64,000 nt of DNA from Chlamydiia bacterium. GTDB taxonomy: Bacteria; Chlamydiota; Chlamydiia; Chlamydiales; Rhabdochlamydiaceae. The DNA lies in the NCBI GenBank assembly GCA_963804085.1, contig CAWDOQ010000002.1, positions 160,001-224,000 of the forward strand. The letters run 5' to 3'. Position numbers and translations under genes: made by a program. Shown piece after piece: positions 2,872 to 49,615 of the stretch. The stretch's first letter is position 1; every line of letters starts with the position of its first letter. Under the pieces are notes generated by a model. It did not search any database. It saw nothing but the letters and a program-made list of their open reading frames with translations, and had not been told where the DNA came from.

Positions 2872-3654
2872 ATGAGCATCGCATTGAGCATCGTAGGCGC
2901 CACAGGAAAAATGGGGCGCAGCCTTCTTATGCTCGCTCTGAAAGACCCCTCTTTTAAAGTAGTGAGCGGCTCTGCGAGTTCGCGCTCGCCTCACATCGGT
3001 AAAGATTTAGCAGAGCTGCTAGCACTTGCACCGATCGGTGCACTTCTTGAGAGCAATGTCGAACCTGTCTTTGAAAAGGCGCATGTCGTCATCGACGTCT
3101 CTACCTCTGTTGCTACCATGAACCATCTTCAGATGGCAATAAAGCAGAGAAAACCTTTTATTATCGGCTCCACAGGACATAAAAGCGAAGAGAGGCTTGC
3201 AATTGAAACAGCCGGCAAAGAGATCCCTATTCTCTACGCCCCCAACTTCACCCTCGGCGTCTCTCTATGCAAACAGGCGATCAGCCTCTTTGCCAAACAT
3301 CTCAAAGATAGCTGCTATGTCGATATCATCGAGACACACCACACACAGAAAAAAGATGCGCCCAGCGGAACCGCTCTTTCTTTTGCAAGAGCCCTTAACT
3401 ATGGCCGCATCTGCCCCGGAACTGTCGTAGAACAGCCCAGATCCAAAGAGACAATTGCCATCCACTCCATTCGCAGCGGCGACGTCGTAGGCGAGCATAG
3501 AATCATCTTTGAATGCGCAGGAGAGCGGATCGAGATTAAGCATGAAGCCTTAACACGTGAAGCTTTTGCCAAAGGCGCCCTGAAAGCCGCACAGTTTCTC
3601 TCCAAACAGCCGGCCGGCTTTTACACCATGGAAGATATCGTCAAATATGAGTGA
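2872..3654 (+). CDS. dapB: 4-hydroxy-tetrahydrodipicolinate reductase
   Basis: GATGKMG Rossmann motif; ETHHTQKKDAPSGTA catalytic motif. Confidence 0.95.
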   Translation: MSIALSIVGATGKMGRSLLMLALKDPSFKVVSGSASSRSPHIGKDLAELLALAPIGALLESNVEPVFEKAHVVIDVSTSVATMNHLQMAIKQRKPFIIGSTGHKSEERLAIETAGKEIPILYAPNFTLGVSLCKQAISLFAKHLKDSCYVDIIETHHTQKKDAPSGTALSFARALNYGRICPGTVVEQPRSKETIAIHSIRSGDVVGEHRIIFECAGERIEIKHEALTREAFAKGALKAAQFLSKQPAGFYTMEDIVKYE

Positions 3655-32150: not shown

Positions 32151-32405
32151 ATGACATTTCACTCACCCTGGTCGGGAACAGTTACCTTTTCAACGCTTGT
32201 AAAAGCATACATCGCTCTGCAAAGTCAGGTTGTACAAGCTGTAAAAAACGTTGCGAGCCGTATGTCGCAAGCAACACCCGGTAAGTTCCTGCTCCTCCAA
32301 TTCCAAATGAGCCAGGTGACACAGATTGGCGAGTCGATCTCTAACTTGATCAGTCAGATTCAGTCGACGATCAACAACACGATCCGTAACCAGAAGAGTT
32401 CGTAA
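32151..32405 (+). CDS. cdsF: Needle subunit CdsF/SctF
   Basis: 84 aa; FLLLQFQMSQVTQIGESISNL needle C-terminal helix; lies between cdsE and cdsG. Confidence 0.8.
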   Translation: MTFHSPWSGTVTFSTLVKAYIALQSQVVQAVKNVASRMSQATPGKFLLLQFQMSQVTQIGESISNLISQIQSTINNTIRNQKSS

Positions 32406-32424
32406 TTTTATATAGGGAGAGTTT

Positions 32425-32862
32425 ATGGCACAGCTGCAAAAGTTTAAAGACCACTTCATCCTGTTAGTAGAGGCGGGCTTTATCGCCGTCAACCAAGCGG
32501 ATGAGGATGCTGCAACAAAGCTCTTTCGAGCCTCCGAAATGCTCAACCCCGAAAACACACTTCCCAAAGTCGGCATGGGCTACATGCACCTATGCAAACT
32601 AGAGCTCAAGCAAGCTTGCAAACTCTTCGACGAAGTGCTCAAAAAAGAGCCGAGCAATGAGATGGCAAAGACCTTCTTGGGTTTGAGCATGGCTCTCAAC
32701 CCTGCCGAAGTAGTCAAAGGTGAGAAGATTCTAGAAGAGGCCGCCAAAAAGGCGCACGATCCTAACATCAAAAATCTAGCTAACACAGCTATCAACTTTG
32801 TCGAAAAGTTCGTGAAAAAGGCTCCTGGCCCCGGCCAAGGCCCCGCTCCTAAGAAGAAGTAG
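32425..32862 (+). CDS. cdsG: TPR needle chaperone CdsG (CT667-like)
   Basis: EAGFIAVNQADEDAA motif, TPR-like helices; synteny. Confidence 0.88.
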   Translation: MAQLQKFKDHFILLVEAGFIAVNQADEDAATKLFRASEMLNPENTLPKVGMGYMHLCKLELKQACKLFDEVLKKEPSNEMAKTFLGLSMALNPAEVVKGEKILEEAAKKAHDPNIKNLANTAINFVEKFVKKAPGPGQGPAPKKK

Positions 32863-33059
32863 CACTGACCTCTTGCATAACCTTCTTCGCGTGCCCCTGC
32901 CCGGATCGGCGGCGAATGCGGTTCAAAGCAACCAGGCACCCCCTAACCATCTCATTTATAACATGGTACGCAAGATGTTAATTAAAAATTTGTTTATATT
33001 GTATTAATATATTAATTTAACATATAATTTTTACTTTATTAACAAAACGGATAAAAACA

Positions 33060-33728
33060 ATGGCAATACCATTATCAGAATCAGATTTTTATAAAAGTCT
33101 AATGGCAGTCCAAAGGGAAATTGAAAGCGAAGAGTTCGAAGTTGTAGAACTTTCCCCACAAGACACTCGTATACAAAATGTCATGCAGCCCAAGATTGAC
33201 CAACTTGAACAGGCTCTCGCTATGCAGACTACGATGCAAGCCTCAGTATCCGATGCGGTAGTTTCTTCCGATACAGTGCAAAAATGCCTTTCTGCATCGA
33301 ATGCTATTAACTGGGGAAAGATTGCAAATCGTGCATGCACCTTTTTTGCATGCGTTGTTTTAGGCGCATTTACTGCGCTTTTATTATCCGGCCTCATGAT
33401 AAATCCTATTTTTTGGGGAATAGTTGGCGTGGCGCTCATTATTAGTTTAGCCACGGCAATAGCGAAAGGCGGCGTAAAAGAATTAGGCGTTCATTTAGGC
33501 ATAGGTGCAAGTGGATTTCTAATGGGCTGGGCACCTACTGCTGCTTTTGTCGAGCTCGCCACTGGTATGAAGATGTCTTTTGGTTATTCATTTGCTAGTC
33601 TATTTGTTAGCGTAGTCATGACGAGTGCTGGAATGGTTCCTGAAGGAATTCTTCTTAACACCATTGCGGATGGAAATCTGCCTGATTGTGATATTCTAGA
33701 GATGCACCGTAAAGCTAAGAAGCAATAA
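33060..33728 (+). CDS. Orphan membrane protein, Inc-like
   Basis: Bilobed hydrophobic domain (CTFFACVVLGAFTALLLSGLMINPIFWGIVGVALIISLATAI) plus further hydrophobic segments; no Sec signal; AT-rich upstream region. Confidence 0.7.
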   Translation: MAIPLSESDFYKSLMAVQREIESEEFEVVELSPQDTRIQNVMQPKIDQLEQALAMQTTMQASVSDAVVSSDTVQKCLSASNAINWGKIANRACTFFACVVLGAFTALLLSGLMINPIFWGIVGVALIISLATAIAKGGVKELGVHLGIGASGFLMGWAPTAAFVELATGMKMSFGYSFASLFVSVVMTSAGMVPEGILLNTIADGNLPDCDILEMHRKAKKQ

Positions 33729-33742
33729 CTCTCACCCCTTCT

Positions 33743-33846
33743 TGCCCCTGCCCGTGCCCTTGCCTCTGCCCTTGCCCGAATTTTTAAAAGAAAAGAATAA
33801 GAAAAGAAGAAATCGGGCACAGGCACGCACACGGGCACAGGCACGT
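33743..33846. repeat. GGGCAC/GTGCCC-type palindromic repeat
   Basis: TGCCC-rich left arm and GGGCAC-rich right arm. Confidence 0.8.
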
Positions 33847-33939
33847 AAATGAAGAGAGGATCCAACCTTCTTCATGACAAAAACACTACCCCCTGTTATC
33901 TTGAGGGTTGGGCGCCGCTAAACCCCAGAGGACACTCTC

Positions 33940-34266
33940 ATGACAGCAAGCACTCCTTTCGAAGATGTAACAAGCACCTCCAAAATTGACTCCACACAGC
34001 GTATTGGGGAAGATAGACACCTGGGCTCCACGGGCCAGCCCTTCTCGACATACATGCAAGAGGGGCAGGCAAATGTGCTGGGCACACCCGGTAAACCTGC
34101 TGCTGTTTCTCCTTTCGATCTGGCTCATGGTCCTACTACTCTCCCTGCAGCTCCTACTTTTGACACGCTTTTAGGTCAGGTGAACAATGCGCAAAGCACA
34201 ATGGGAGACGTGAATAGTTACCTCTCCAACCCCAACTTAAAATTGAAGCAGTCGAGCAAGTACCTG
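33940..34266 (+). pseudogene. Truncated duplicate of the CT668-like gene (5' half)
   Basis: 33861-34266 matches 39613-40021 nearly base for base. Confidence 0.92.
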
Positions 34267-34420
34267 CCGAAGTAGTCAAAGGCGAGAAGATTCTAGAAGA
34301 AGCCGCCAAAAATACGACCCTAACATCAAAAATCTGGCTAACACAGCTATCAACTTTGTCGAAAAGTTCGTGAAAAAAGCCCCTGGCCCGGGCCAAGGCC
34401 CCGCTCCTAAGAAGAAGTAA
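34263..34420 (+). pseudogene. Duplicate 3' fragment of cdsG
   Basis: Matches 32701-32862 with a small deletion and third-position changes. Confidence 0.92.
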
Positions 34421-34539
34421 TTTGATTATTAAATTTCTGGCAAATTGACAAACCCCATGGAGGATTGTCTATTTGCGATTCAGTGTAATTTTCATTTGTA
34501 TAATCGCCAATTACTCTTCTCCAAAATTTTGTTGCTAAT

Positions 34540-34878
34540 TCAGAACCGGGAAATTTGCCTTATTCGCCATGGCCCAGGATGTTTATTAAAAACAGCAAAA
34601 GCCATATTTTTACCAACCATTTTCTTTCTGTAAGCAGGAATAACATAAAAGTCTACGATCTCAGAATAACCATCAATAGCCTCGATAATGGAAAAACCAA
34701 CTATATTGGAGCCTTCTTTCCAATAGTAACCGATATTGGGAATATGCCAGTCGACGTCTATAGAGTATTTCCCGTCTTGATTTTTCTTTTTTCCAGTGAT
34801 AGAGGAAAATTCATCCTCATAATCCTGAACTAATTCATCGAAGATATGGGAATTCGATTCGTTAATCAGTTCTAACAT
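34540..34878 (-). pseudogene. GNAT acetyltransferase, probably C-terminally truncated
   Basis: IVDFYVIPAYRKKMVGK...PGPW GNAT motif A; ends abruptly after WRIRQI. Confidence 0.65.
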
Positions 34879-34910
34879 ATACCCTTTCCCATGAAGTCTC
34901 GACAGATGTC

Positions 34911-35687
34911 TCAACGACTTCTTGTCGCATCAGCCATGCAGAATTCTAAGGCCCAATCAGCCAACTGATGTAGGTTATTTCTGACCGCTGGCTCTTTGAT
35001 CCGAGGAACCCAATCTTCTTGGGTGATCGAATCGCTGATGACGAATAGGGTGAGCGTCTGTACCTCTTTCCTTGCCGATCGCATAAAGAGTTGCGGCTTC
35101 CATTTCTACTACGCTGCATCCTTGCTCTTGCACTCTTAAAACATCATCGACGGTTTCGCGGAAAATGGCTGAAAAGCTCCATGCCATCGCAGGATCAAAT
35201 TGTGGTAAAGAGCGCTCTTTAATAAAGTGGTTCCATTCGAGCATCATTTCGGGGTCTGCATCGATCGTTTCCTGGTCTTCTGGAAGATAGAGGTGAGCGA
35301 CCCCATCTTCGGCAAGAGCTTTTGGACAGAGGACGAAATCGGCGATCTTATGAGCATTCATAAGTCCGCCGGCTGTTCCAACAGCGATAAATCGTTTAGC
35401 ACCGAGCGCGATGAGTTCTTCCATCTTAATAGCAAGTCCTGGTGCGCCTACCCCCCAATCTCCCAAAATACCGACCTTGCTATCATTTGAAAGATAAAAG
35501 TGGGTGACCGCTTTCGAAGGCTTAAATTCCGGATGCTTTTTGAGGAATACTACCATCGTGGAGGATTGATAGCAGACAAGAACGGTCTCAGGTGCTTTAA
35601 AATGGCGAGGTGACCATAGGCTCGTTTGTGCTCAAGTAATTTTTTAGCAGTGACGATTGGTTCTTTAGAACTTATCTGAATATTCAT
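34911..35687 (-). pseudogene. Nucleoside (uridine/purine) phosphorylase family gene with two frameshifts
   Basis: GVGAP, VGTAGGL, FRET, VEMEAATL motifs; the N-terminus (MNIQISSKEP) and C-terminus (VQTLTLFVISDS) lie in other frames. Confidence 0.75.
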
Positions 35688-36735
35688 GAACACCGAAAAG
35701 ATTATAAGTAAAAATTTTAAAAACATAATTTGTTATTTAATAATGCCATTATCGCTATTTTTATTCAATAACATATGTTCTTATTCCAATCTTGATTTTT
35801 ATAAAATAATTTTTTTAAAAATAAAGATGCAAAAATACAACTAATACCGTTAAAATAACTGTCTTTTTGGAAATACTCGTCGAGGATAATCATGACCGTT
35901 GAAATGACTGGACTAAAATACATTGAAAACCAGATCGAGAGCTTAAAATACAAACCCAAGCTATCAGAGGCTGAATGGATCATTGGCTTTGCACCTGCAC
36001 TAAGCGCAATGGGAATAGCCAACTTTGGCGTCAATTCAGTCTAAGAATCACCACGGCGATTCCCACAACAATTTATGATTTGGCATGTAGTATCCTTTTT
36101 CAAGAATCTCAATCATCTTAGGGACGGGTTAGTCACCATCCCTAAAGCTGTAGTGCATTTAGTTGTCGATAGCTTGATATTGGTACCTTCTCTTGCTCTT
36201 GGACTTAGTCGTCATCGCCGCCATAGTGTATCTGTTATTACAACGACTCGTTGAAATTATTGCGGAGAGCATTGTCTCATGTCTTCGCCCAGTTGGCTCA
36301 TGCTTTGCAAACATTTACAACGCATAATTTTAGCAACTTGAAAACGAGCTTGCTCCAGCGCGTTTTGTAAGGGTTTTTAGTTGGATTGGCATAGCTTCTA
36401 GGGTTTCCGCGTTTTGCGAGTCTGAAAGTGAATTTTTTTAAACAAGGGTTCTTTCAGTTTGCGATATTGCTCGACATCGTGGTTAGCTTCTATAAATGCG
36501 TTTAAGTAGGTCGGTTTGTGGTGGGACATCGTTAGAATACTCTCGCATATAAAGCACCTCTTTATAATCAGAAACTCTTGCTGTCATATTTTTCCCATTG
36601 TTTTTGCAACTGTTTTAATTGTTTTTAAATTAGGTGAAACAAAAATATTATCGATTAAAGTATTTAATAAAAAAGTTTTAGATGTGTTTATATTTGCACG
36701 GAAGGTATACTTCATGCAAAACAAGGAGATCTATC

Positions 36736-37068
36736 ATGGCATCAGGAATTAAACCGTCGGCAGCTAACATCATAGCAGAGTTTTGTGGACCGATTGTGCG
36801 AGAAAAAGAAAATGAACCAGACACAACATCGATGGTTCGTGAGGTCATCACAAATCTTGCAATCTCGAAGATCCGCTCTGAGAAGTCCGTGGAGTCAGAT
36901 CGTTTTGAATTTGATATTCTTTCAATCGACGGCAACGAAGGCGGGAGCCCTTTTTTAAGTGTACTCTGGCCACAAAGATTTTCAAATTTGAATAGAGATA
37001 CCGAGGTCTTTGCGGGCAACGACCTGACATTGAGCTCTCCTACGATGTCTGTTAAGATCGACTTCTGA
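36736..37068 (+). CDS. Hypothetical protein
   Basis: RBS AAGGAG before ATG 36736; 110-aa ORF after an AT-rich region. Confidence 0.5.
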   Translation: MASGIKPSAANIIAEFCGPIVREKENEPDTTSMVREVITNLAISKIRSEKSVESDRFEFDILSIDGNEGGSPFLSVLWPQRFSNLNRDTEVFAGNDLTLSSPTMSVKIDF

Positions 37069-37244
37069 TAACGATCTTATTCTCTGGTTATCCAAAGACG
37101 TAACATCCTGATAATTAGCGCGATAAGATTTGCTCAACCAGATCTAAGATCTTGATTATCAACATCATGCAACAAGTTATTTTGTTGACTTATTAACTTA
37201 TTTCATATAAAATTATTTAACAGGCTAACTTTATTTTAAAAATT

Positions 37245-38240
37245 ATGACATATCGCACTAATAATACAGATTCAACTGCAGTCGTCCTATACAATCCAAA
37301 CCTGCCTCATAATTTAGCAAGATCGAATTTAGAAGCTAGAACGCAGGCAGCTTACCAGCGTTCATTCGAAGTCGCAAAAACAGGAAGGCATCCAGTTTCC
37401 CTATCAAATATATATCTAATCGCGCCGAAAGGTCTCCAGACAGATCCGCGTATCGACATCGAAATTTTTGCTGCCCCTACTGGTGATCACAAACCTCCAA
37501 TCTTGATCTTTTCTCATGGGATGGGGACCTCTCCTGTACGCTATCGACCTCTTTTGGCGGAATTGGCAAGCCACGGCTTCACTGTTCTAAGCTTAAATCA
37601 CGCATCAAGCTTACAAGCACTACCCGAACAGAGTCCAGAAGAGGAACATGCAACGGCTGAAAAGCTCTCCCACATCATGGCTAATAATATTCAATATGTC
37701 TTAAGCGAGGTTCGCAGCGGAAAACTTAAAGGCATCGGCGATGCGAACAAGATTGTATTGGGAGGGCACTCTTTAGGAGGTGCGGCTTCAATCATGGTTT
37801 CAAGAAACGATACGGAGGTTGCCGGCTGTGTGAACTTGGACGGCTTCTTACATGGCAAAATGAAAACGGAGGGGCTGAAACAGCCTCTTCTGATGGTTAT
37901 CGGCGATTATCAGAATGACATAAGCGTGCTAGAACAAGATCCTCAAAAAGAGGCAAAAGACTATGCGAAGCATGTGAGCCAATCCCTCCAAGAATACAAT
38001 ACGCTTAATCGCAATTCTCGAGATTCTGAAAAACTCATGATCCAAAACGCCGTTCATATGGACTTTACCGACCAACCTTTCTTTGATCATCTTGCAGGGA
38101 AAAAAAGTAGTGCTGACGCAATGAGAGTGCATACCATTGTGTCCCAGCAAATGTTAAAATTTATGAATGATCTGAGCAGCCCAAACTATGTCCATCTCTC
38201 CGCAAGATCATGGCATTTCAACCGCTCTTGCGCAGAGTGA
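37245..38240 (+). CDS. Alpha/beta hydrolase (PAF-acetylhydrolase/lipase-like)
   Basis: IFSHGMG, LASHGFTV, GHSLGG nucleophile elbow, NLDG, HMDFTD. Confidence 0.85.
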   Translation: MTYRTNNTDSTAVVLYNPNLPHNLARSNLEARTQAAYQRSFEVAKTGRHPVSLSNIYLIAPKGLQTDPRIDIEIFAAPTGDHKPPILIFSHGMGTSPVRYRPLLAELASHGFTVLSLNHASSLQALPEQSPEEEHATAEKLSHIMANNIQYVLSEVRSGKLKGIGDANKIVLGGHSLGGAASIMVSRNDTEVAGCVNLDGFLHGKMKTEGLKQPLLMVIGDYQNDISVLEQDPQKEAKDYAKHVSQSLQEYNTLNRNSRDSEKLMIQNAVHMDFTDQPFFDHLAGKKSSADAMRVHTIVSQQMLKFMNDLSSPNYVHLSARSWHFNRSCAE

Positions 38241-38309
38241 CACAAGCCACTCTGAGTCATAAAAAGGGGAAAGTTTGCGCTGTAAGGCTTAAAGACATAC
38301 TTCGTCATT

Positions 38310-38590
38310 TCATTCATTGGAAATATCTTCGTCATTCTGATTTTCTAAGCGTTGGCGCGCACGCTGGATAGCTTTGATCAATTTATCGCGAAGAACTGCT
38401 TTGGATGGCAAGACTGTAAGGTATTCTGCAACATGAATCCCTTACCATAACCTGCTGTCAATTGTCGCCACAGTGTGGCGACAATCTTTTGTCCATATTC
38501 GGCACGTTCATTCTTAAGGATTTCCCTGCGGATACGGAATCCTACATGCCAGTAGAGTAAGGTCAATCCCGCGTTTACATTGGACGCTCT
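38310..38590 (-). pseudogene. DUF1016/YhcG remnant with an internal deletion
   Basis: N-terminal VNAGLTLLYWHVG...RAEYG...YGKGF joined out of frame to the C-terminal GIHVAEYLTVLP. Confidence 0.8.
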
Positions 38591-38950
38591 GGATTTGAGC
38601 CAGAGACCAGCGGGTAATGAGAGCCTTGCTCCTAAGAAGAAATAACTCTTGAGATCTTTATCATCAGAGCGGCAAATCGACATTTGTATATTTGCCGCTC
38701 TAAAGCGATCTCTGAATTTTACAACACACTAAAAATAAGTGACTTGTAAAAGCCCAATCTCAAACAACTTTTGATTTGAATGTCGATTTGGCTATTTGTT
38801 AAGGTGCTTCCCAGCCCGCTTCCGAACGCCACTGACCTCTTGCATAACCTTCTTCTCGTGCCCATGCCCGATCTTCAGCCTCTTTGTGTTAAATTCTCTT
38901 ATTGCTAAGAAATTATTTTAATTTTAAGCTAAGGGAAACGGGAGGTTTTT

Positions 38951-39319
38951 ATGGAAATACGCGGTGCAGGCCCAACTTATGGGGCAACAGGTCCAAATAT
39001 GGATCCCAGAACTCAGGCACAATATGATGTAAACGCTTTAGAACGCTACACACAGCAGTTTAAAGACGATTTGGCAGCACTGAGCAAGGATCCAAGTAAT
39101 CCACAGCTCAAACAAGCCGTACAAAACGACTTTAAAGCTATGTCCGCTGCGATGTCAGATTTGCAAAAGCTCGCTCCATTGTTACCTAAAAATGTTCAAG
39201 AGTTAATCGGAAATGCAGCGGACCTATTGGACAAGATGGGGTCGCAAATGCAGCAAATAAGTTCCCTCAAAATCGACCAATTTCAGGCGATGCTGGATAC
39301 GATTAAGGACAACCTTTAG
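38951..39319 (+). CDS. Small helical hypothetical protein with G/P-rich N-terminus
   Basis: RBS GGAGG; 122-aa ORF. Confidence 0.75.
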   Translation: MEIRGAGPTYGATGPNMDPRTQAQYDVNALERYTQQFKDDLAALSKDPSNPQLKQAVQNDFKAMSAAMSDLQKLAPLLPKNVQELIGNAADLLDKMGSQMQQISSLKIDQFQAMLDTIKDNL

Positions 39320-39487
39320 AGATTTGGAATCTAGAATCAATCTCAACAAATAAACGCGCGAAGAAGTGGACGCCCCCAACGGACAGAAAGGACCATGGAC
39401 GCAAACAGACGTCTAACGGACAAAAATGGACGGGGGCAAAAGAACAACTAAGAAGTAGCACTGACCCTTCTTGCCCTTGCCCGAATT

Positions 39488-39588
39488 CCGTTACCGTCAC
39501 CGTTTTCCGTTGCCGTTACCGGATTAAAAGATAAGAGAAAAGAGAAGAAAGAATCGGTAACGGGAAACGGTGACGGTAACGGTAACGG
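39488..39588. repeat. CCGTTA/TAACGG palindromic repeat
   Basis: CCGTTACCGTCACCGTTTTCCGTT...CGGGAAACGGTGACGGTAACGG; the left arm recurs at 49232-49265. Confidence 0.85.
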
Positions 39589-39691
39589 GATTGCGACTCG
39601 AAAAAGAGTATCTCCAACCTTCTTCATGACAAAAACACTACCCCCTGTTATCTTGAGGGTTGGGCGCCGCTAAACCCCAGAGGACACTCTC

Positions 39692-40348
39692 ATGACAGCA
39701 AGCACTCCTTTCGAAGATGTAACAAGCACCTCCAAAATTGACTCCACACAGCGTATTGGGGAAGATAGACACCTGGGCGTCCCTACGGGCCAGCCCTTCT
39801 CGACATACATGCAAGAGGGGCAGGCAAATGTGCTGGGCACACCCGGTAAACCTGCTGCTGTTTCTCCTTTCGATCTGGCTCATGGTCCTACTACTCTCCC
39901 TGCAGCTCCCACTTTCGATACGCTTTTGGGACAGGTGAACAATGCGCAAAGCACAATGGGAGATGTGAACAGTTACCTCTCGAATCCCAACTTAAAATTG
40001 AAGCAGTCGAGCAAGTACCTGCTGAAAAACAAGCTCACAGATGCCAACACACACATGCGCACGGCGGCGACTCATCTGGGAGCACAGACACCTGAAGAAG
40101 CGGAGATCGCGCCGGGTTCTGGACCGATTGCCCGTTTTGTCAGTTATGTCACAAATGGTCAGAATCAGTTAGAAGCTGCCAAACAGCGCCTGGCTGATCT
40201 TAAAAATTCGGGGCAAGATTTAAAGCCGGCCGACTTTCTTCTGGTCCAGATACAGCTAAACTTAGCGCAGCAGAGCTTGGAGTACTCCTCTGTCGTGCTC
40301 AGTAAAGCGATGGACGATATCAAGATGCTCATGAACATTCAGCTCTAG
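39692..40348 (+). CDS. CT668-like T3SS-associated protein
   Basis: Lies between cdsG and cdsN; C-terminal LLVQIQLNLAQQSLEYSSVVLSKAMDDIKMLMNIQL resembles a needle/rod-type tail. Confidence 0.8.
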   Translation: MTASTPFEDVTSTSKIDSTQRIGEDRHLGVPTGQPFSTYMQEGQANVLGTPGKPAAVSPFDLAHGPTTLPAAPTFDTLLGQVNNAQSTMGDVNSYLSNPNLKLKQSSKYLLKNKLTDANTHMRTAATHLGAQTPEEAEIAPGSGPIARFVSYVTNGQNQLEAAKQRLADLKNSGQDLKPADFLLVQIQLNLAQQSLEYSSVVLSKAMDDIKMLMNIQL

Positions 40349-40357
40349 TTTTAAACT

Positions 40358-41677
40358 ATGGAACGCACCACTGATTTTGACAAGCTGATCTCCCACCTAG
40401 ATGAGGTGGAGCTTTCTACCGTGCATGGCAGGATCACAGAGGTGGTCGGCATGCTTATCAAAGCGGTGGTCCCTCAAGTCAAAATGGGAGAGGTGTGCCT
40501 GATCAAACGCGAAGGCGAGGACCCTCTTTTTGCAGAGGTGGTCGGTTTTACGCGCGATGAGGTCTACCTATCGCCCTTGGGCAATATGACTGGCATCGGC
40601 CCCTCATCCGAAGTGATCCCGCTGCGTATGCCCCTGCATATCAAAATCGGCCCTGAGCTGTTAGGAAGGGTGTTAGATGGTCTCGGCCACCCTCTTGATG
40701 TGGACACAAAAGGGCCGCTGGACCTGAAAGAGACCTTCTCGATAATCAATCCTCCTCCCGATCCGCTCAAACGCAAGATGATCAAAGAGCCGATCTCGGT
40801 GGGTGTGCGTGCGATCGACGGTGTGCTCACCTGCGGTAGGGGCCAGCGTATGGGTATCTTCTCGGGAGCAGGCGTCGGAAAATCGACTCTTTTGGGAATG
40901 ATTGCGCGTAACGCAAAAGCTGATGTTAACGTGATCTCGCTGATCGGTGAGAGGGGTCGCGAGGTAAGGGAGTTTCTAGAAAATGATCTGGGCGAAGAGG
41001 GCATGAAACGCTCCGTCATCATCGTCTCAACTTCTGATCAGGCAGCCCAGCTGCGCATAAACGCAGCCTATGTGGGAACCGCTATTGCCGAGTACTTCCG
41101 CGAGCAGGGCAAGACTGTCATTTTGATGATGGATTCTGTCACGCGTTTTGCACGTGCACTTCGCGAGATTGGTCTGGCAGCCGGAGAGCCGCCGGCTCGT
41201 GCGGGATTTACCCCCTCTGTGTTTGCCACGCTTCCTAAGCTTCTTGAGCGCTCGGGCAACTCGGAGAAGGGTTCGATTACAGCGTTTTATACAGTGCTAG
41301 TAGCAGGGGACGATATCAATGAGCCTGTCTCCGATGAGACGCGCTCGATTTTGGACGGCCACATCATCCTCTCATCCGAGCTCGCCCGTCAGTACCACTA
41401 CCCTGCAATCGATGTTTTGAGTTCTATTAGCCGTATTTTAACTCATATCGTCGATGCCGAGCACTTGCAGCTCATCGGGAAGGTGCGCGAGGTTTTGGCT
41501 AACTACAAGAAAAATGAGCTCTTGATCCGCATTGGTGAGTATAAACCGGGTTCTGACAAAGGGGCCGATTTTGCAATCAAATACATCGACAAGGTGAACC
41601 GTTTCCTCAAACAGCAAGTCGACGAAAAGTCCTCTTTCGAAGAGACCTTGCAGCAGCTTAGAGCACTCTTTAGGTAG
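40358..41677 (+). CDS. cdsN: T3SS ATPase CdsN/SctN
   Basis: GAGVGKST, LIGERGREV, DSVTRFARA, LDGHIILS. Confidence 0.96.
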   Translation: MERTTDFDKLISHLDEVELSTVHGRITEVVGMLIKAVVPQVKMGEVCLIKREGEDPLFAEVVGFTRDEVYLSPLGNMTGIGPSSEVIPLRMPLHIKIGPELLGRVLDGLGHPLDVDTKGPLDLKETFSIINPPPDPLKRKMIKEPISVGVRAIDGVLTCGRGQRMGIFSGAGVGKSTLLGMIARNAKADVNVISLIGERGREVREFLENDLGEEGMKRSVIIVSTSDQAAQLRINAAYVGTAIAEYFREQGKTVILMMDSVTRFARALREIGLAAGEPPARAGFTPSVFATLPKLLERSGNSEKGSITAFYTVLVAGDDINEPVSDETRSILDGHIILSSELARQYHYPAIDVLSSISRILTHIVDAEHLQLIGKVREVLANYKKNELLIRIGEYKPGSDKGADFAIKYIDKVNRFLKQQVDEKSSFEETLQQLRALFR

Positions 41678-41692
41678 GGGGAGTAACAAGTA

Positions 41693-42223
41693 GTGAATGG
41701 CGTCGAATACCCTCTTGAGCAGCTCGCAATCATCAAACAAAAAAAGCTAGAAGAAGCGGAAAAAAACTTACGCGAGAAAAAGAATGCTCTTCTCAAAGAA
41801 GAAGAGAAACTGGCAAAAGTAGAAGAGGAACGCGACAAGGTCAAAGAGCATAAGATGGCCAAGCTGACGCAGCTGCGCGAAAAGATGGATGAGGGGACGA
41901 CGAGTGACAAGATCCATCAGATGAGACAGTACATGAAAGTGGTCGATGAGCAGCTGAAGCAAAAAGAGCACAAGGTCAAAGAGCAGAAGAAGCTGGTAGA
42001 AACGGCGAGCAAGCAGGTGGAAGCGGCAAGAGAGGAGCTTTTAAAAAAGCAGCAGGATGTAGAGAAATTGAATCTGCACCGCAAAGAGTGGGAAAAAGAG
42101 ATGCACGCGCTGATGCTCCATCAAGAGGGTATAGAGTCTGATGAGATGGGAGCTACGATGCACCAAGCAAGAAAAAAGAGTAAGCGAGGCAAAACGCCTC
42201 CTCACCATAAGAAAAAAGAGTAA
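41693..42223 (+). CDS. cdsO: T3SS stalk protein CdsO/SctO
   Basis: YPLEQL N-terminus, long charged coiled coil; follows cdsN. Confidence 0.88.
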   Translation: MNGVEYPLEQLAIIKQKKLEEAEKNLREKKNALLKEEEKLAKVEEERDKVKEHKMAKLTQLREKMDEGTTSDKIHQMRQYMKVVDEQLKQKEHKVKEQKKLVETASKQVEAAREELLKKQQDVEKLNLHRKEWEKEMHALMLHQEGIESDEMGATMHQARKKSKRGKTPPHHKKKE

Positions 42224-42229
42224 GTAGCC

Positions 42230-43465
42230 ATGGCAGAAGTGAGTCGTGTTTCAGGCCCCGGAGGCTCCGAAGATTCCTCGAAAAAAGATAAGAAGGTCGC
42301 TGACGCCCAAAAATTTCGAGAGCTTATGAAGGTCCAGAAGGTCGACGAAGTAGACGAAGAGCAAAAAAAGAAGAGAAAGCGTCCGCAAGAGGCCGAAGAG
42401 GATGCCAAAGCGCAAGAAGCCGCGCAAGGTGCGCCACCGCCCGTTGGGGTCCCTCCCACAGACGCGCCTCCCTTTGCTCCCCACTCTGACAAAAAAGTGG
42501 GCGGTGTTTTAAAATCGGGACAGCTAGGCGGGCCCGCTCCCACGGCTCCCCCTCCTTCTGCACCTGCTCCCTCTGAGCCAGAGGATGGCTTTTGGGAAGG
42601 AGAGACCTACATGCAGACGTTTCCTGATACAACACCCTCTCAAAAATCTGCGCAGCCTCCTCTCAAAACTCCTGCCCCATCCGCTCCCCTCTCTGCCCCT
42701 GAACCTATGCAGCCTACGCGTGCAGAGCAACCGCAACCTCCCGCTCCTGTTATCGGTCCGCCTCCTACCAAAAAAGCGGCTCAAGCGGCACAAAAACCAG
42801 AAGTAGGCCCTCCCAAACCCGCACACAAAGAGGAGAAGGAGAGCTACTTCACGCAAGCAAAAAAGACGGGAAAGAAGAAAGAGGAGATACCTTCCGTGCC
42901 AGAAGAGATGGAGGGCACAGCGGTGACCCCGCCTGCGGCAGCTGGAGAGACAAGATCTACTAAAAAAGCAAAAGGCGAAGAGAAAATAGAGGAGATGACT
43001 CCACAAACCGGGCAGATGCAAACGCCGGAACTACCGCTCGAGGCCCCAGGGCCTATAGGCGCACCAACTCCTCCGCCCTCTTATGCCTACTTGCACCCGC
43101 ATGTGCTCGACATGTTCGAGAGAATGGTGGGCGTGATGACCGTAATGACAAATGCGGGCATTAGCGAAACCACCATTACTTTGAGCGCTCCGCAATACAA
43201 CTCTTCGATTTTCTATGGAGCGCAGATCATCATCCAAGAGTATAGCACAGCACCCAAAGCATTTAACGTGCAGCTGATAGCTAGTCCACAAGCGGTGAAG
43301 CTTTTTAACGCGAATGCAGACGATTTAATGGCAGCTTTTCAGGGCGGCAAATACAATTTCAGAATCAACCGGCTAGAAGCCTCCCTTGCATCCGACCGTC
43401 CCCTATTTAAACGAAAAGAGGGTATTTCCGGAGAGGGCAAAGGAAAAGAGAAAGGAGAACGGTAA
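42230..43465 (+). CDS. cdsP: CdsP/SctP-like needle-length ruler (CT671 position)
   Basis: Long Pro/Lys/Glu-rich disordered region plus a C-terminal globular switch-like domain; lies between cdsO and cdsQ. Confidence 0.75.
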   Translation: MAEVSRVSGPGGSEDSSKKDKKVADAQKFRELMKVQKVDEVDEEQKKKRKRPQEAEEDAKAQEAAQGAPPPVGVPPTDAPPFAPHSDKKVGGVLKSGQLGGPAPTAPPPSAPAPSEPEDGFWEGETYMQTFPDTTPSQKSAQPPLKTPAPSAPLSAPEPMQPTRAEQPQPPAPVIGPPPTKKAAQAAQKPEVGPPKPAHKEEKESYFTQAKKTGKKKEEIPSVPEEMEGTAVTPPAAAGETRSTKKAKGEEKIEEMTPQTGQMQTPELPLEAPGPIGAPTPPPSYAYLHPHVLDMFERMVGVMTVMTNAGISETTITLSAPQYNSSIFYGAQIIIQEYSTAPKAFNVQLIASPQAVKLFNANADDLMAAFQGGKYNFRINRLEASLASDRPLFKRKEGISGEGKGKEKGER

Positions 43466-43467
43466 AG

Positions 43468-44097
43468 ATGATCAACTCCTCCAAATTAGTGCACGAAAAA
43501 ATAGAGGGTTCGCCTCTTGAGACACAAGAAGAGAAAAAGATCCCTCCCTTTAAACCTCTTTTAGAGAAAGAGGAGAAGGCGCGAGATACAAAAGAGGAGA
43601 GCTTTTTCGATCTTTTGGCATCTCGAGAAAAGAAGAAGAGCGAAAAAGAGGAGAGTGAGATAGGGCTTAGCGCCCTTCCGCCTCCCCTTCTCTCCCCTCT
43701 TCTCCTGGCATCAATCGAAGCGCCGCGCTTTTTAGCAGCTTCCTTAGCTCCGCTATTCGAAGCGATGGTGGGACAGATGCAAGTGATGACAGAGAAGGGT
43801 GTCGTCGAAACAACGGTTACTCTCAATGCTCCTAAATACGCAAACTCTCCTTTTTACGGGACGCAGATTACGATCCGCGAATATAGTACCGCTCCCAAAA
43901 TCTTCAACATCGAAGTGAGCACATCTGTGCAGGCAGCGGCTCTGCTACAAAAGAATCAAGAACAGCTCCTCTTTGCTATGCAAGGACAAGGGTATAACTT
44001 TAAGATAAACCGCTTTGAGGCATCGCTCTTAAGAGCAAAAGATGAGGAGCAAGCCTCATCCGATGACCAACAACAACAAGGAAACGAAAGACAATGA
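43468..44097 (+). CDS. Short paralog of CdsP
   Basis: FEAMVGQMQVMT...ETTVTLNAPKY...FYGTQITIREYSTAPKIFN aligns with the CdsP C-terminal domain. Confidence 0.85.
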   Translation: MINSSKLVHEKIEGSPLETQEEKKIPPFKPLLEKEEKARDTKEESFFDLLASREKKKSEKEESEIGLSALPPPLLSPLLLASIEAPRFLAASLAPLFEAMVGQMQVMTEKGVVETTVTLNAPKYANSPFYGTQITIREYSTAPKIFNIEVSTSVQAAALLQKNQEQLLFAMQGQGYNFKINRFEASLLRAKDEEQASSDDQQQQGNERQ

Positions 44098-49156: not shown

Positions 49157-49290
49157 GAGTTTGGATCTTTCAGAATTCAAACAATTTCTGCAACAGGATT
49201 TTGACAATCATATTCTGGCATCTCCTGACATCCGTTACCGTCACCGTTTTCCGTTACCGTTACCGATTTGCGTCTGCTTTACGTTAATAG

Positions 49291-49466: not shown

Positions 49467-49615
49467 TAATCGCGAAGAGAAAAAAATCGGGCACGGGCAC
49501 GCACGCGGGCACGGGCACGTTGTCTAGAAGAGGCAGAGCTCGATTCTATGGTTTACAATAATCCGCAGAGTATTTTAGGATTCGAAGACAAGTTTCTTTA
49601 TTTTTTGAATACAAT

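Follow-up and report, generated by a model that had tools for sequence, protein, structure and literature searches.

We examined a 64,000-nucleotide (nt) window of the genome of a Chlamydiia bacterium of the Rhabdochlamydiaceae (contig C2, positions 160001-224000; the genome comprises 2.13 Mb in 24 contigs, with 47.9% GC), in which open reading frames (ORFs) and Pfam matches located a chlamydial type III secretion system (T3SS) cluster. In Chlamydia, as described in PMC2734247, the needle protein CdsF has the chaperones CdsE and CdsG, and Ct668 is part of a structural-gene operon. Here cdsG and the CT668 homologue are separated by 6.8 kb of stacked accessory and decayed genes, among which remnants of the cdsG end recur. 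Intact cdsG (32425-32862, plus strand; positions are those of the window unless a contig or locus is named) encodes a 145-amino-acid (aa) TPR-like needle chaperone with weak Pfam matches (HrpB1_HrpK, TPR) and ends in APKKK*, the first of five tail copies, which we call T1 to T5. The intact CT668 homologue (39692-40348, plus strand) encodes 218 aa.

The first-pass annotation had noted the recurrence of the cdsG end, and we located all five tail copies (32845, 33714, 34403, 38628, and 39448) where it had placed them, at a frequency above chance. Matching the 17-mer at the cdsG end against the window, with up to three mismatches allowed, returned 32845 and 34403 (no mismatches), 38628 (one mismatch), and 61441 on the minus strand (two mismatches), the last of which is an unrelated site. 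These four matches compare with 0.20 expected from shuffles, and none of 100 shuffles reached four. The copy at 39448 is identical to 32854-32870 at 17 of 17 nt. The copy at 33714 is weak alone and matches the copy at 38632 at 17 of 18 nt; the sequences 3′ of the 33714 and 39448 copies are homologous to each other. The sequence that follows the cdsG stop recurs at 38830, also as claimed: a 26-mer is found exactly only at 32863 and 38830 (shuffle expectation 0.00), and the homology between these sites extends over 41 nt at 95%. When a 210-nt query spanning the cdsG end and post-stop sequence was compared with the entire 2.13-Mb genome, only its own site, 34263, and 38830 matched, all within the interval. 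Two of these features differ in kind from what had been proposed. The tail at 34403 is a real copy, but it is the end of a 158-nt stub of the cdsG 3′ region and not a short motif; the post-stop sequence does occur twice, but it is the left end of a hexamer-repeat hairpin family found throughout the genome.

The 158-nt stub forms half of a fusion between the start of one gene and the end of the other. The first half is a copy of the CT668 leader and codons 1-107 (33861-34262, plus strand), on which an ORF (33940-34275) encodes 111 aa. Comparison of 33861-34267 with 39613-40022, the leader and 5′ end of intact CT668, revealed 97% identity over 410 nt; the 79-nt leader itself (33861-33939) is 100% identical to 39613-39691. 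The second half is the cdsG 3′ stub (34263-34420, plus strand), which corresponds to cdsG nt 277-438 and ends in tail T3; over 34263-34419 it is 92.5% identical to the final 161 nt of cdsG (32701-32861). Where the two stubs meet (34263-34271, plus strand), the parental alignments overlap in 9 nt of microhomology with one mismatch, and this head-to-tail joint is a signature of illegitimate recombination. The interval is laid out as two units on either side of this joint. The left unit consists of cdsG, a post-stop module (A), an Inc-like gene, T2, a hairpin element (B), and the CT668 5′ stub. The right unit consists of the cdsG 3′ stub with T3, 4.2 kb of cargo, T4, approximately 180 nt of non-coding DNA, a second post-stop module (E), the gene for a 122-aa protein (o122), an arm of a GGAC-containing hairpin, T5, a second hairpin element (F), and CT668.

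The differences between the stubs and the intact genes are almost entirely silent. In the cdsG stub, all eight substitutions away from an indel fall at silent third positions (seven synonymous changes and a TAG/TAA stop variant), and the only damage is one 4-nt frameshifting deletion with an adjacent change. In the CT668 stub, nine of nine substitutions are synonymous and cluster at 39910-39985, accompanied by one in-frame 3-nt indel. All 17 substitutions are therefore silent third-position changes. Had one copy drifted freely, about half of the changes would be expected at codon positions 1-2, and by our arithmetic the chance of finding none among 17 is approximately 1e-6. Thus, the differences arose in working genes. 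The pattern fits either of two readings: the stubs may be alleles of another lineage, or the intact genes may later have been overwritten in patches by recombination between lineages. Both need inter-lineage recombination at the locus. The frameshift, in turn, indicates that the cdsG stub is a dead fragment in a real genome and not the working gene of a second strain.

The remaining tail copies are shorter, and each of the several unlike blocks between them is bounded by a cdsG tail remnant, in agreement with the earlier observation that the cargo differs from copy to copy. T2 (33714-33728, plus strand) comprises 15 nt followed by a diverged version of the post-stop 8-mer. T4 (38623-38649, plus strand) comprises 18 nt with one silent change, possibly 25 nt, followed by 4 nt that it has in common with T2; it lies outside the part of the adjoining DUF1016 fragment that matches the paralogues of that gene. 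We rejected a chance origin of T4, as our arithmetic puts the expectation for the 17-mer with one mismatch at <0.001. T5 (39448-39468, plus strand) consists of 6-11 nt of tail plus the stop, then the post-stop 8-mer, and is probably the original junction between cdsG and its spacer. Together, the remnants measure ~0, 6-11, 15, 18-25, and 158 nt with no constant core, they carry differing stop codons (TAG and TAA), and two break points, those at T3 and at module E, fall exactly at the stop codon.

The blocks themselves end in broken genes and repeats. The Inc-like ORF runs into T2, from which its last five codons derive, and the DUF1016 gene is cut off beside T4. The GGAC hairpin 3′ of o122 is cut in its loop, and at this joint (39448) it shares the microhomology CTAAG with the cdsG tail, so that both joints that could be judged contain microhomology. 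A GNAT frame takes its stop from the reverse complement of T3, as would be expected of a gene that faced cdsG convergently in a donor whose operon was split. The cargo lies on both strands and is partly pseudogenized.

To place the interval in context, we compared the cdsG/CT668 joint with the same joint in 40 relatives, all from other genera (best cdsG match 78%), and in 20 metagenome loci (best full-length cdsG match 76%; two partial matches reach 78%). cdsG was found in 37 of the 40 relatives and CT668 also in 37, with both present in 36; in 35 of these 36 genomes, the alignment coordinates place the two genes close together on one contig and one strand. Close inspection of 29 loci, 26 of which contain both genes, revealed stop-to-start spacers of -4 to 235 nt in 21 of the 26, bearing out the proposal that this part of the T3SS cluster is normally contiguous. 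Four of these spacers measure 157-235 nt and contain hairpin-like sequence. At the other five loci, the CT668 alignment begins at the cdsG stop or within 33 nt of it. Both genes were also present in 9 of the 20 metagenome loci, with gaps of 34-186 nt, while the others were too short except for one (L046).

Two loci depart from this arrangement. In the relative G008, a tig-clpP-clpX ... cdsD-E-F-G block is inverted with respect to CT668-cdsN, and one break lies exactly at the cdsG/CT668 joint. The inverted cdsG of this genome (L064; G008:C5:7500-21500) is followed by a gene for a putative SWIM/SNF2-like helicase, named from its translation. At L046 (65% cdsG identity), cdsG is followed by at least 477 nt of other DNA without CT668 (3020-3496); this stretch ends in the short start of an ORF whose initial residues may resemble the Rpn/PD-(D/E)XK "transposase-like" proteins. 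The joint is normally tight yet has been opened independently elsewhere. We also scanned the genome for gene-end stubs lying 3′ of their own genes, which returned 53 matches for 4516 ORF ends compared to 36 matches for the upstream control. These were mostly tandem paralogues and internal repeats, and the scan was uninformative. No description of an interrupted cdsG-CT668 joint turned up in a literature search that was not thorough.

The cargo of the left unit is an Inc-like membrane protein ORF (33060-33728, plus strand) of 222 aa with adjacent hydrophobic segments at residues 90-140 and 181-199. It has no Pfam match and was not found in the 40 relatives; an atlas look-up returned SseF (0.82) and IncV (0.78) as look-alikes, which serve as leads only. 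In the right unit, the 4.2-kb block (34421-38622) contains, by Pfam and frame analysis, a frameshifted GNAT gene and an incomplete nucleoside phosphorylase gene (PNP_UDP_1), both on the minus strand, followed by frameshifted small membrane ORFs (35892-36327), an ORF of 110-128 aa (36682-37068), an intact alpha/beta hydrolase gene resembling platelet-activating factor (PAF)-acetylhydrolase (37245-38240, plus strand), and an N-terminal fragment of a DUF1016 gene on the minus strand. GC content in this block falls to 0.30-0.41, compared to 0.479 for the genome. The hydrolase was found in only 3 of the 40 relatives (best identity 47%). A scan of genome contigs with the hydrolase, in search of a cargo donor, yielded one locus, with 54% identity and neither other cargo nor a T3SS gene beside it. 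The cargo ORFs that we tested (the third piece of the 35892-36327 frames was left out) are single-copy in the genome except for DUF1016, and no toxin or immunity domain was detected in the cargo with Pfam.

Between T4 and module E lies the non-coding block of ~180 nt (38650-38829, plus strand), which contains a hairpin with 17-nt arms (38666-38701). The o122 block (38897-39447, plus strand) comprises the 122-aa ORF (38951-39319) with a 5′ leader and the left arm of the GGAC 9-mer hairpin (39367-39445). o122 was not found in the 40 relatives, and its best atlas look-up (0.77) is likewise a lead only. A paralogue at C8:19948-20274 is 37% identical; its leader is homologous, and the hairpin downstream of it is complete. 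We rejected homology between the Inc-like gene and o122, since no DNA match between them was found. The GGAC-containing 9-mer arms define a second dispersed hairpin family, represented in the window at 39367-39445 and on contig C8 of this genome at L063 1280-2030, where complete copies flank the o122 paralogue; at least ten further matches were found in the genome.

The post-stop modules belong to the first hairpin family. In module A (32863-32907, plus strand), the 8-mer is followed by a motif resembling a terminal inverted repeat (TIR) and a pair of hexamers. The module corresponds to the left end of a hexamer-repeat hairpin element, here an orphan; it is 95% identical to 38830-38870 and folds no better than shuffles (z -0.03). 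Module E (38830-38874, plus strand) is another such orphan left end and lacks a preceding tail (fold z -0.50). B and F are complete family members with dozens of dispersed matches in the genome. Hairpin element B (33736-33846, plus strand) has GCCC-type hexamer arms around a purine-rich loop (-49.5 kcal/mol, z -4.85), while F (39465-39597, plus strand) consists of a short remnant of a GCCC-type arm followed by a CCGTTA-type hexamer hairpin (-64.7 kcal/mol, z -7.98). A search of both against Rfam returned only sub-threshold matches to microRNA hairpins. Tandem Repeats Finder (TRF) detected 297 GC-rich arrays across the genome, in which the repeat period is 6, 12, or 18 nt, and 96 pairs of adjacent arrays form hairpins whose arms are inverted tandem hexamers of three main types. 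The outer inverted TIR-like motif of one hairpin subfamily is also present in modules A and E. At three distinct loci (C10:17476, C10:160172, and C7:6785, the last equivalent to C19:343628), the arms enclose a PF05635 (23S_rRNA_IVP) gene; one such copy spans G000 C10:17476-18060. Within the window, intergenic hairpins of this family are present at 522-617, 21898-21929, 29591-29667, 33741-33844, 39488-39588, 49232-49265, and 49488-49519. Elsewhere in the genome, an array of ~58 copies of an 18-nt unit (G000 C10:12916-15229; 64% matching) has Gly-Pro-Val-type repeats in one frame and may encode a collagen-like repeat protein.

Downstream of F, the CT668 leader (39613-39691, plus strand) contains a promoter-like site at 39626-39654, which is duplicated at 33874-33902 in the leader of the stub. 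A similar promoter-like motif is present 3′ of cdsG in a 72% relative, at metagenome locus L037 (~848-895), a hint that CT668 may be the first gene of a separate transcription unit in this clade. The cdsG/CT668 joint appears to be a boundary between transcription units. CT668 is followed by cdsN (40358-41677) and then by a YscO-like gene and others. Upstream of cdsG, the cluster contains genes for a CesT-type chaperone (29704-30138), CdsD in two ORFs (30156-30887 and 30884-31882), and a DUF5398 protein (31899-32141), and an 84-aa ORF (32151-32405). The two CdsD ORFs overlap by 4 nt just 3′ of a C run, and the relative G008 has a single 573-aa ORF; the split may represent a frameshift, a genuine division at a domain boundary, or a sequencing error. 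There is no tRNA within 28000-44000.

The simplest reading of the interval is that repeated events were anchored at the cdsG end. We tentatively favor a model in which these events were serial imports by homology-facilitated illegitimate recombination, with one end anchored in cdsG and an illegitimate far end. Diverged lineages within the same chlamydial group would have supplied DNA that recombined repeatedly into the locus, one end pairing by homology within conserved cdsG or further upstream and the other joining illegitimately, through microhomology of a few bases, within or close to the tail of the resident cdsG. Each import would place a new cdsG end and the donor's following DNA in front, and the remnant of the resident tail, together with its downstream DNA, would be pushed toward CT668. 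We infer how the events were ordered and directed, the donors involved, and that DNA was taken up by transformation, with the oldest material lying beside CT668. The original junction (T5 and hairpin F) would have been followed by the o122 block, the ~180-nt block, the 4.2-kb block running from GNAT to DUF1016, and, last, a block comprising module A, the Inc-like gene, T2, hairpin B, and 107 codons of CT668, whose far end would have landed inside resident cdsG at nt 277. The site might tolerate such events as a boundary between transcription units, at which strong hairpin repeats are followed by a conserved promoter-like leader.

Several observations are consistent with this model. The interval contains an intact anchor gene and a string of its stubs (33714, 34263-34420, 38623-38649, and 39448), with microhomology at 34263-34271 and 39448. 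The varied stub lengths, the differing stop codons, the haphazard block ends, and the exclusively silent differences also fit it, and G008 and L046 show that the joint can be broken. The genome encodes both ComEC and RecA. In Chlamydia trachomatis, gene transfer requires a ComEC homologue. Small contigs that resemble strain variants of parts of larger ones are also present (C3 of C1, 98.1% identical; C7 of C19, 98.5%; C9 of C10, 95.2%), with a third-codon-position bias in two of the three pairs, which suggests that the copies on small contigs are co-assembled strain variants or recent large duplications.

Other points weigh against serial import. We found neither a donor nor a simpler allele, the closest cdsG being 78% identical, so that both the sequence of events and a foreign source for the blocks are putative. 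The synonymous-only pattern could also result from duplication in place if intact genes were later overwritten in patches, and the cluster of CT668 differences at 39910-39985 fits such overwriting. Unrelated genes follow modules A and E despite their 95% identity; the model therefore needs donors that share a post-stop module with different genes behind it, and it does not account for such donors. Nor does it account for how the cargo first reached the end of a donor cdsG. Homology-facilitated illegitimate recombination was rare where it has been measured, according to PMC5361080, and uptake by transformation is putative in this organism, in which ComEC and RecA are present.

The interval could instead have formed in place, within one lineage, at a fragile spacer. 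Under this explanation, which we consider possible but rather unlikely, a tandem duplication from cdsG nt 277 to CT668 nt 327 would have been accompanied by separate illegitimate insertions; palindromic hairpins after the cdsG stop may have provoked these events, and later recombination between strains would have overwritten patches of the intact genes. A tandem duplication would produce precisely the joint seen at 34263, and this genome has many tandem duplicates. The spacer contains the strong hairpins B and F, the joint is occupied in 4 of 26 relatives by a spacer of 157-235 nt with hairpins, and the CT668 differences occupy a 76-nt patch with identical sequence on either side. However, while a plain tandem duplication would account for the novel head-to-tail joint, it sits poorly with the lack of substitutions at codon positions 1-2, so that extra recombination steps are needed to make all 17 substitutions silent in both stubs. 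The differing stop codons of the tail stubs are also left unexplained. Moreover, apart from the DUF1016 paralogues and the distant o122 paralogue, the tested cargo ORFs have no second copy in the genome and thus were not copied from elsewhere within it. An assembly chimera, in which two or more strains were sampled and two allelic versions were strung along one contig, strikes us as improbable but is to be taken seriously. The arrangement is known from the assembled contig alone, the estimated contamination is 4.97%, and the stub divergences (92.5-97%) are in the same range as the 95-98.5% identities of the strain-variant contigs. Yet we infer that an assembler would not make a 9-nt mismatched joint of non-homologous positions without spanning reads, the 4-nt frameshifting deletion marks the cdsG stub as a dead fragment, and stubs of 6-25 nt are not derivable from co-assembly.

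Two further explanations invoke mobile elements. That the hairpin elements were the vehicle, with the genes between their ends (A...B and E...F) captured or moved as passengers into the element of the spacer, is very improbable. With their TIR-like motif and arm, modules A and E have the canonical form of the family's left end, B and F are complete members, hairpin arms surround PF05635 genes at three loci, and the C8 paralogue of o122 likewise sits between hairpins. But the arms around the two genes in the interval do not pair (A and E fold like shuffles, and F has a different arm type), the supposed cassettes have tail stubs within them, neither a transposase nor another mobilizing enzyme is linked to them, and the mobility of the family is itself putative. 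The least probable explanation is a site-specific cassette-like system, in which an integrase or the host Xer recombines at the cdsG stop and duplicates the tail at each integration. Direct tail repeats do flank the 4.2-kb block (T3 and T4 agree at ~22 of 25 nt), and the genome encodes three tyrosine recombinases (PF00589), found in the genome-wide search for recombinase and competence genes that the first-pass annotation had advised. As it had reported, however, none lies in the window; the nearest (C2:231191-231715) is ~7 kb past the window end and ~31 kb beyond CT668, and the others are farther away or on other contigs. No core of fixed length runs through the repeats, the blocks end in truncated genes and in a repeat that is itself cut short, and the largest "tail" proves to be a 158-nt piece of cdsG joined to a stub of CT668. 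Although the breaks at T3 and E fall exactly at the stop codon, such break points are expected anyway, because coding conservation between lineages ends there. Thus, of the cassette-like array built by repeated tail-anchored insertions that had been proposed, repeated tail-anchored events are likely, but the cassette and integrase mechanism is unsupported: with no constant core, no intact element ends, and the nearest tyrosine recombinase 31 kb away, a dedicated system of this kind is unlikely, and the structure is better described as a known kind of recombination scar array in a new form.

Returning to serial import, the closest parallels are the orphan arrays behind type VI secretion system (T6SS) effector and Rhs genes, for which the same recombination model has been proposed in PMC5361080. 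As in the T6SS effector-immunity arrays of Vibrio cholerae and the C-terminal displacements of Rhs and contact-dependent inhibition (CDI) genes described or cited there, homology is provided by a conserved anchor gene upstream, resident downstream DNA is displaced, fragments of the anchor 3′ end lie in a string, and no integrase takes part. Unlike those arrays, the anchor here is a T3SS needle-chaperone gene within a structural operon and not a polymorphic toxin gene; the cargo mixes orphan ORFs, an Inc-like protein, a hydrolase, and pseudogenes; and one displacement also carried the start of CT668. As there is no toxin-immunity logic here, the likeness to polymorphic toxin systems is one of mechanism only. 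Homology-facilitated illegitimate recombination is described in transformable Acinetobacter, Pseudomonas stutzeri, and pneumococcus, in PMC3240628 and in references cited in PMC5361080, and resembles our case in having one homologous end and one microhomology end, with DNA added with or without loss of resident sequence. In those organisms it was demonstrated experimentally, whereas here the mechanism is read from scars.

The interval also resembles integron arrays and islands at gene 3′ ends with duplicated attachment (att) sites, in that unrelated blocks accumulate in one direction beside a conserved gene end with a recurring short sequence. Unlike integron arrays, it has neither an adjacent integrase nor an attC-like site at each boundary: the boundaries are stubs of ~0-158 nt, and the only strong hairpins, B and F, both belong to the genome-wide repeat. 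It also lacks the common core of fixed extent and the intact element ends of 3′-end integrase islands, and differs from both classes in its truncated block ends and in cargo on both strands. Finally, A, B, E, and F resemble repetitive extragenic palindromic (REP) sequences and bacterial interspersed mosaic elements (BIMEs), miniature inverted-repeat transposable element (MITE)-like hairpin repeats, and PF05635 hairpin cassettes in that their family has inverted tandem hexamers as arms, occurs in many dispersed copies, and includes full forms that carry genes. Such repeats alone leave the gene-end stubs unexplained; the hairpins are a component of the interval and possibly a cause of its fragility.

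The block from cdsD to cdsQ is among the most conserved in the Chlamydiae, and here a stack of apparent imports occupies 6.8 kb in its middle. The scars mark where the operon can be opened, and they tie a site of structural instability to a poorly described family of hairpin repeats, whose hexamer-repeat cassettes might act as a break-prone or capturing element. As we read them, they record several recombination events with diverged relatives, a form of gene flow that is hard to observe in uncultured intracellular bacteria. A broader proposal, which we regard as speculative and doubtful, is that the cdsG/CT668 joint is a natural landing pad at which environmental chlamydiae stack secretion-linked accessory genes through DNA uptake and half-homologous recombination, with the Inc-like membrane protein, the o122 family, and the PAF-acetylhydrolase-like hydrolase as candidates. 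If the intact cargo ORFs prove to be secretion substrates, the joint would be a strain-variable effector slot and could serve as a marker for strain typing and for questions of gene gain. If the landing-pad proposal is true, the stack would be a direct trace, left in the genome, of gene gain of the transformation type in these obligate intracellular bacteria.

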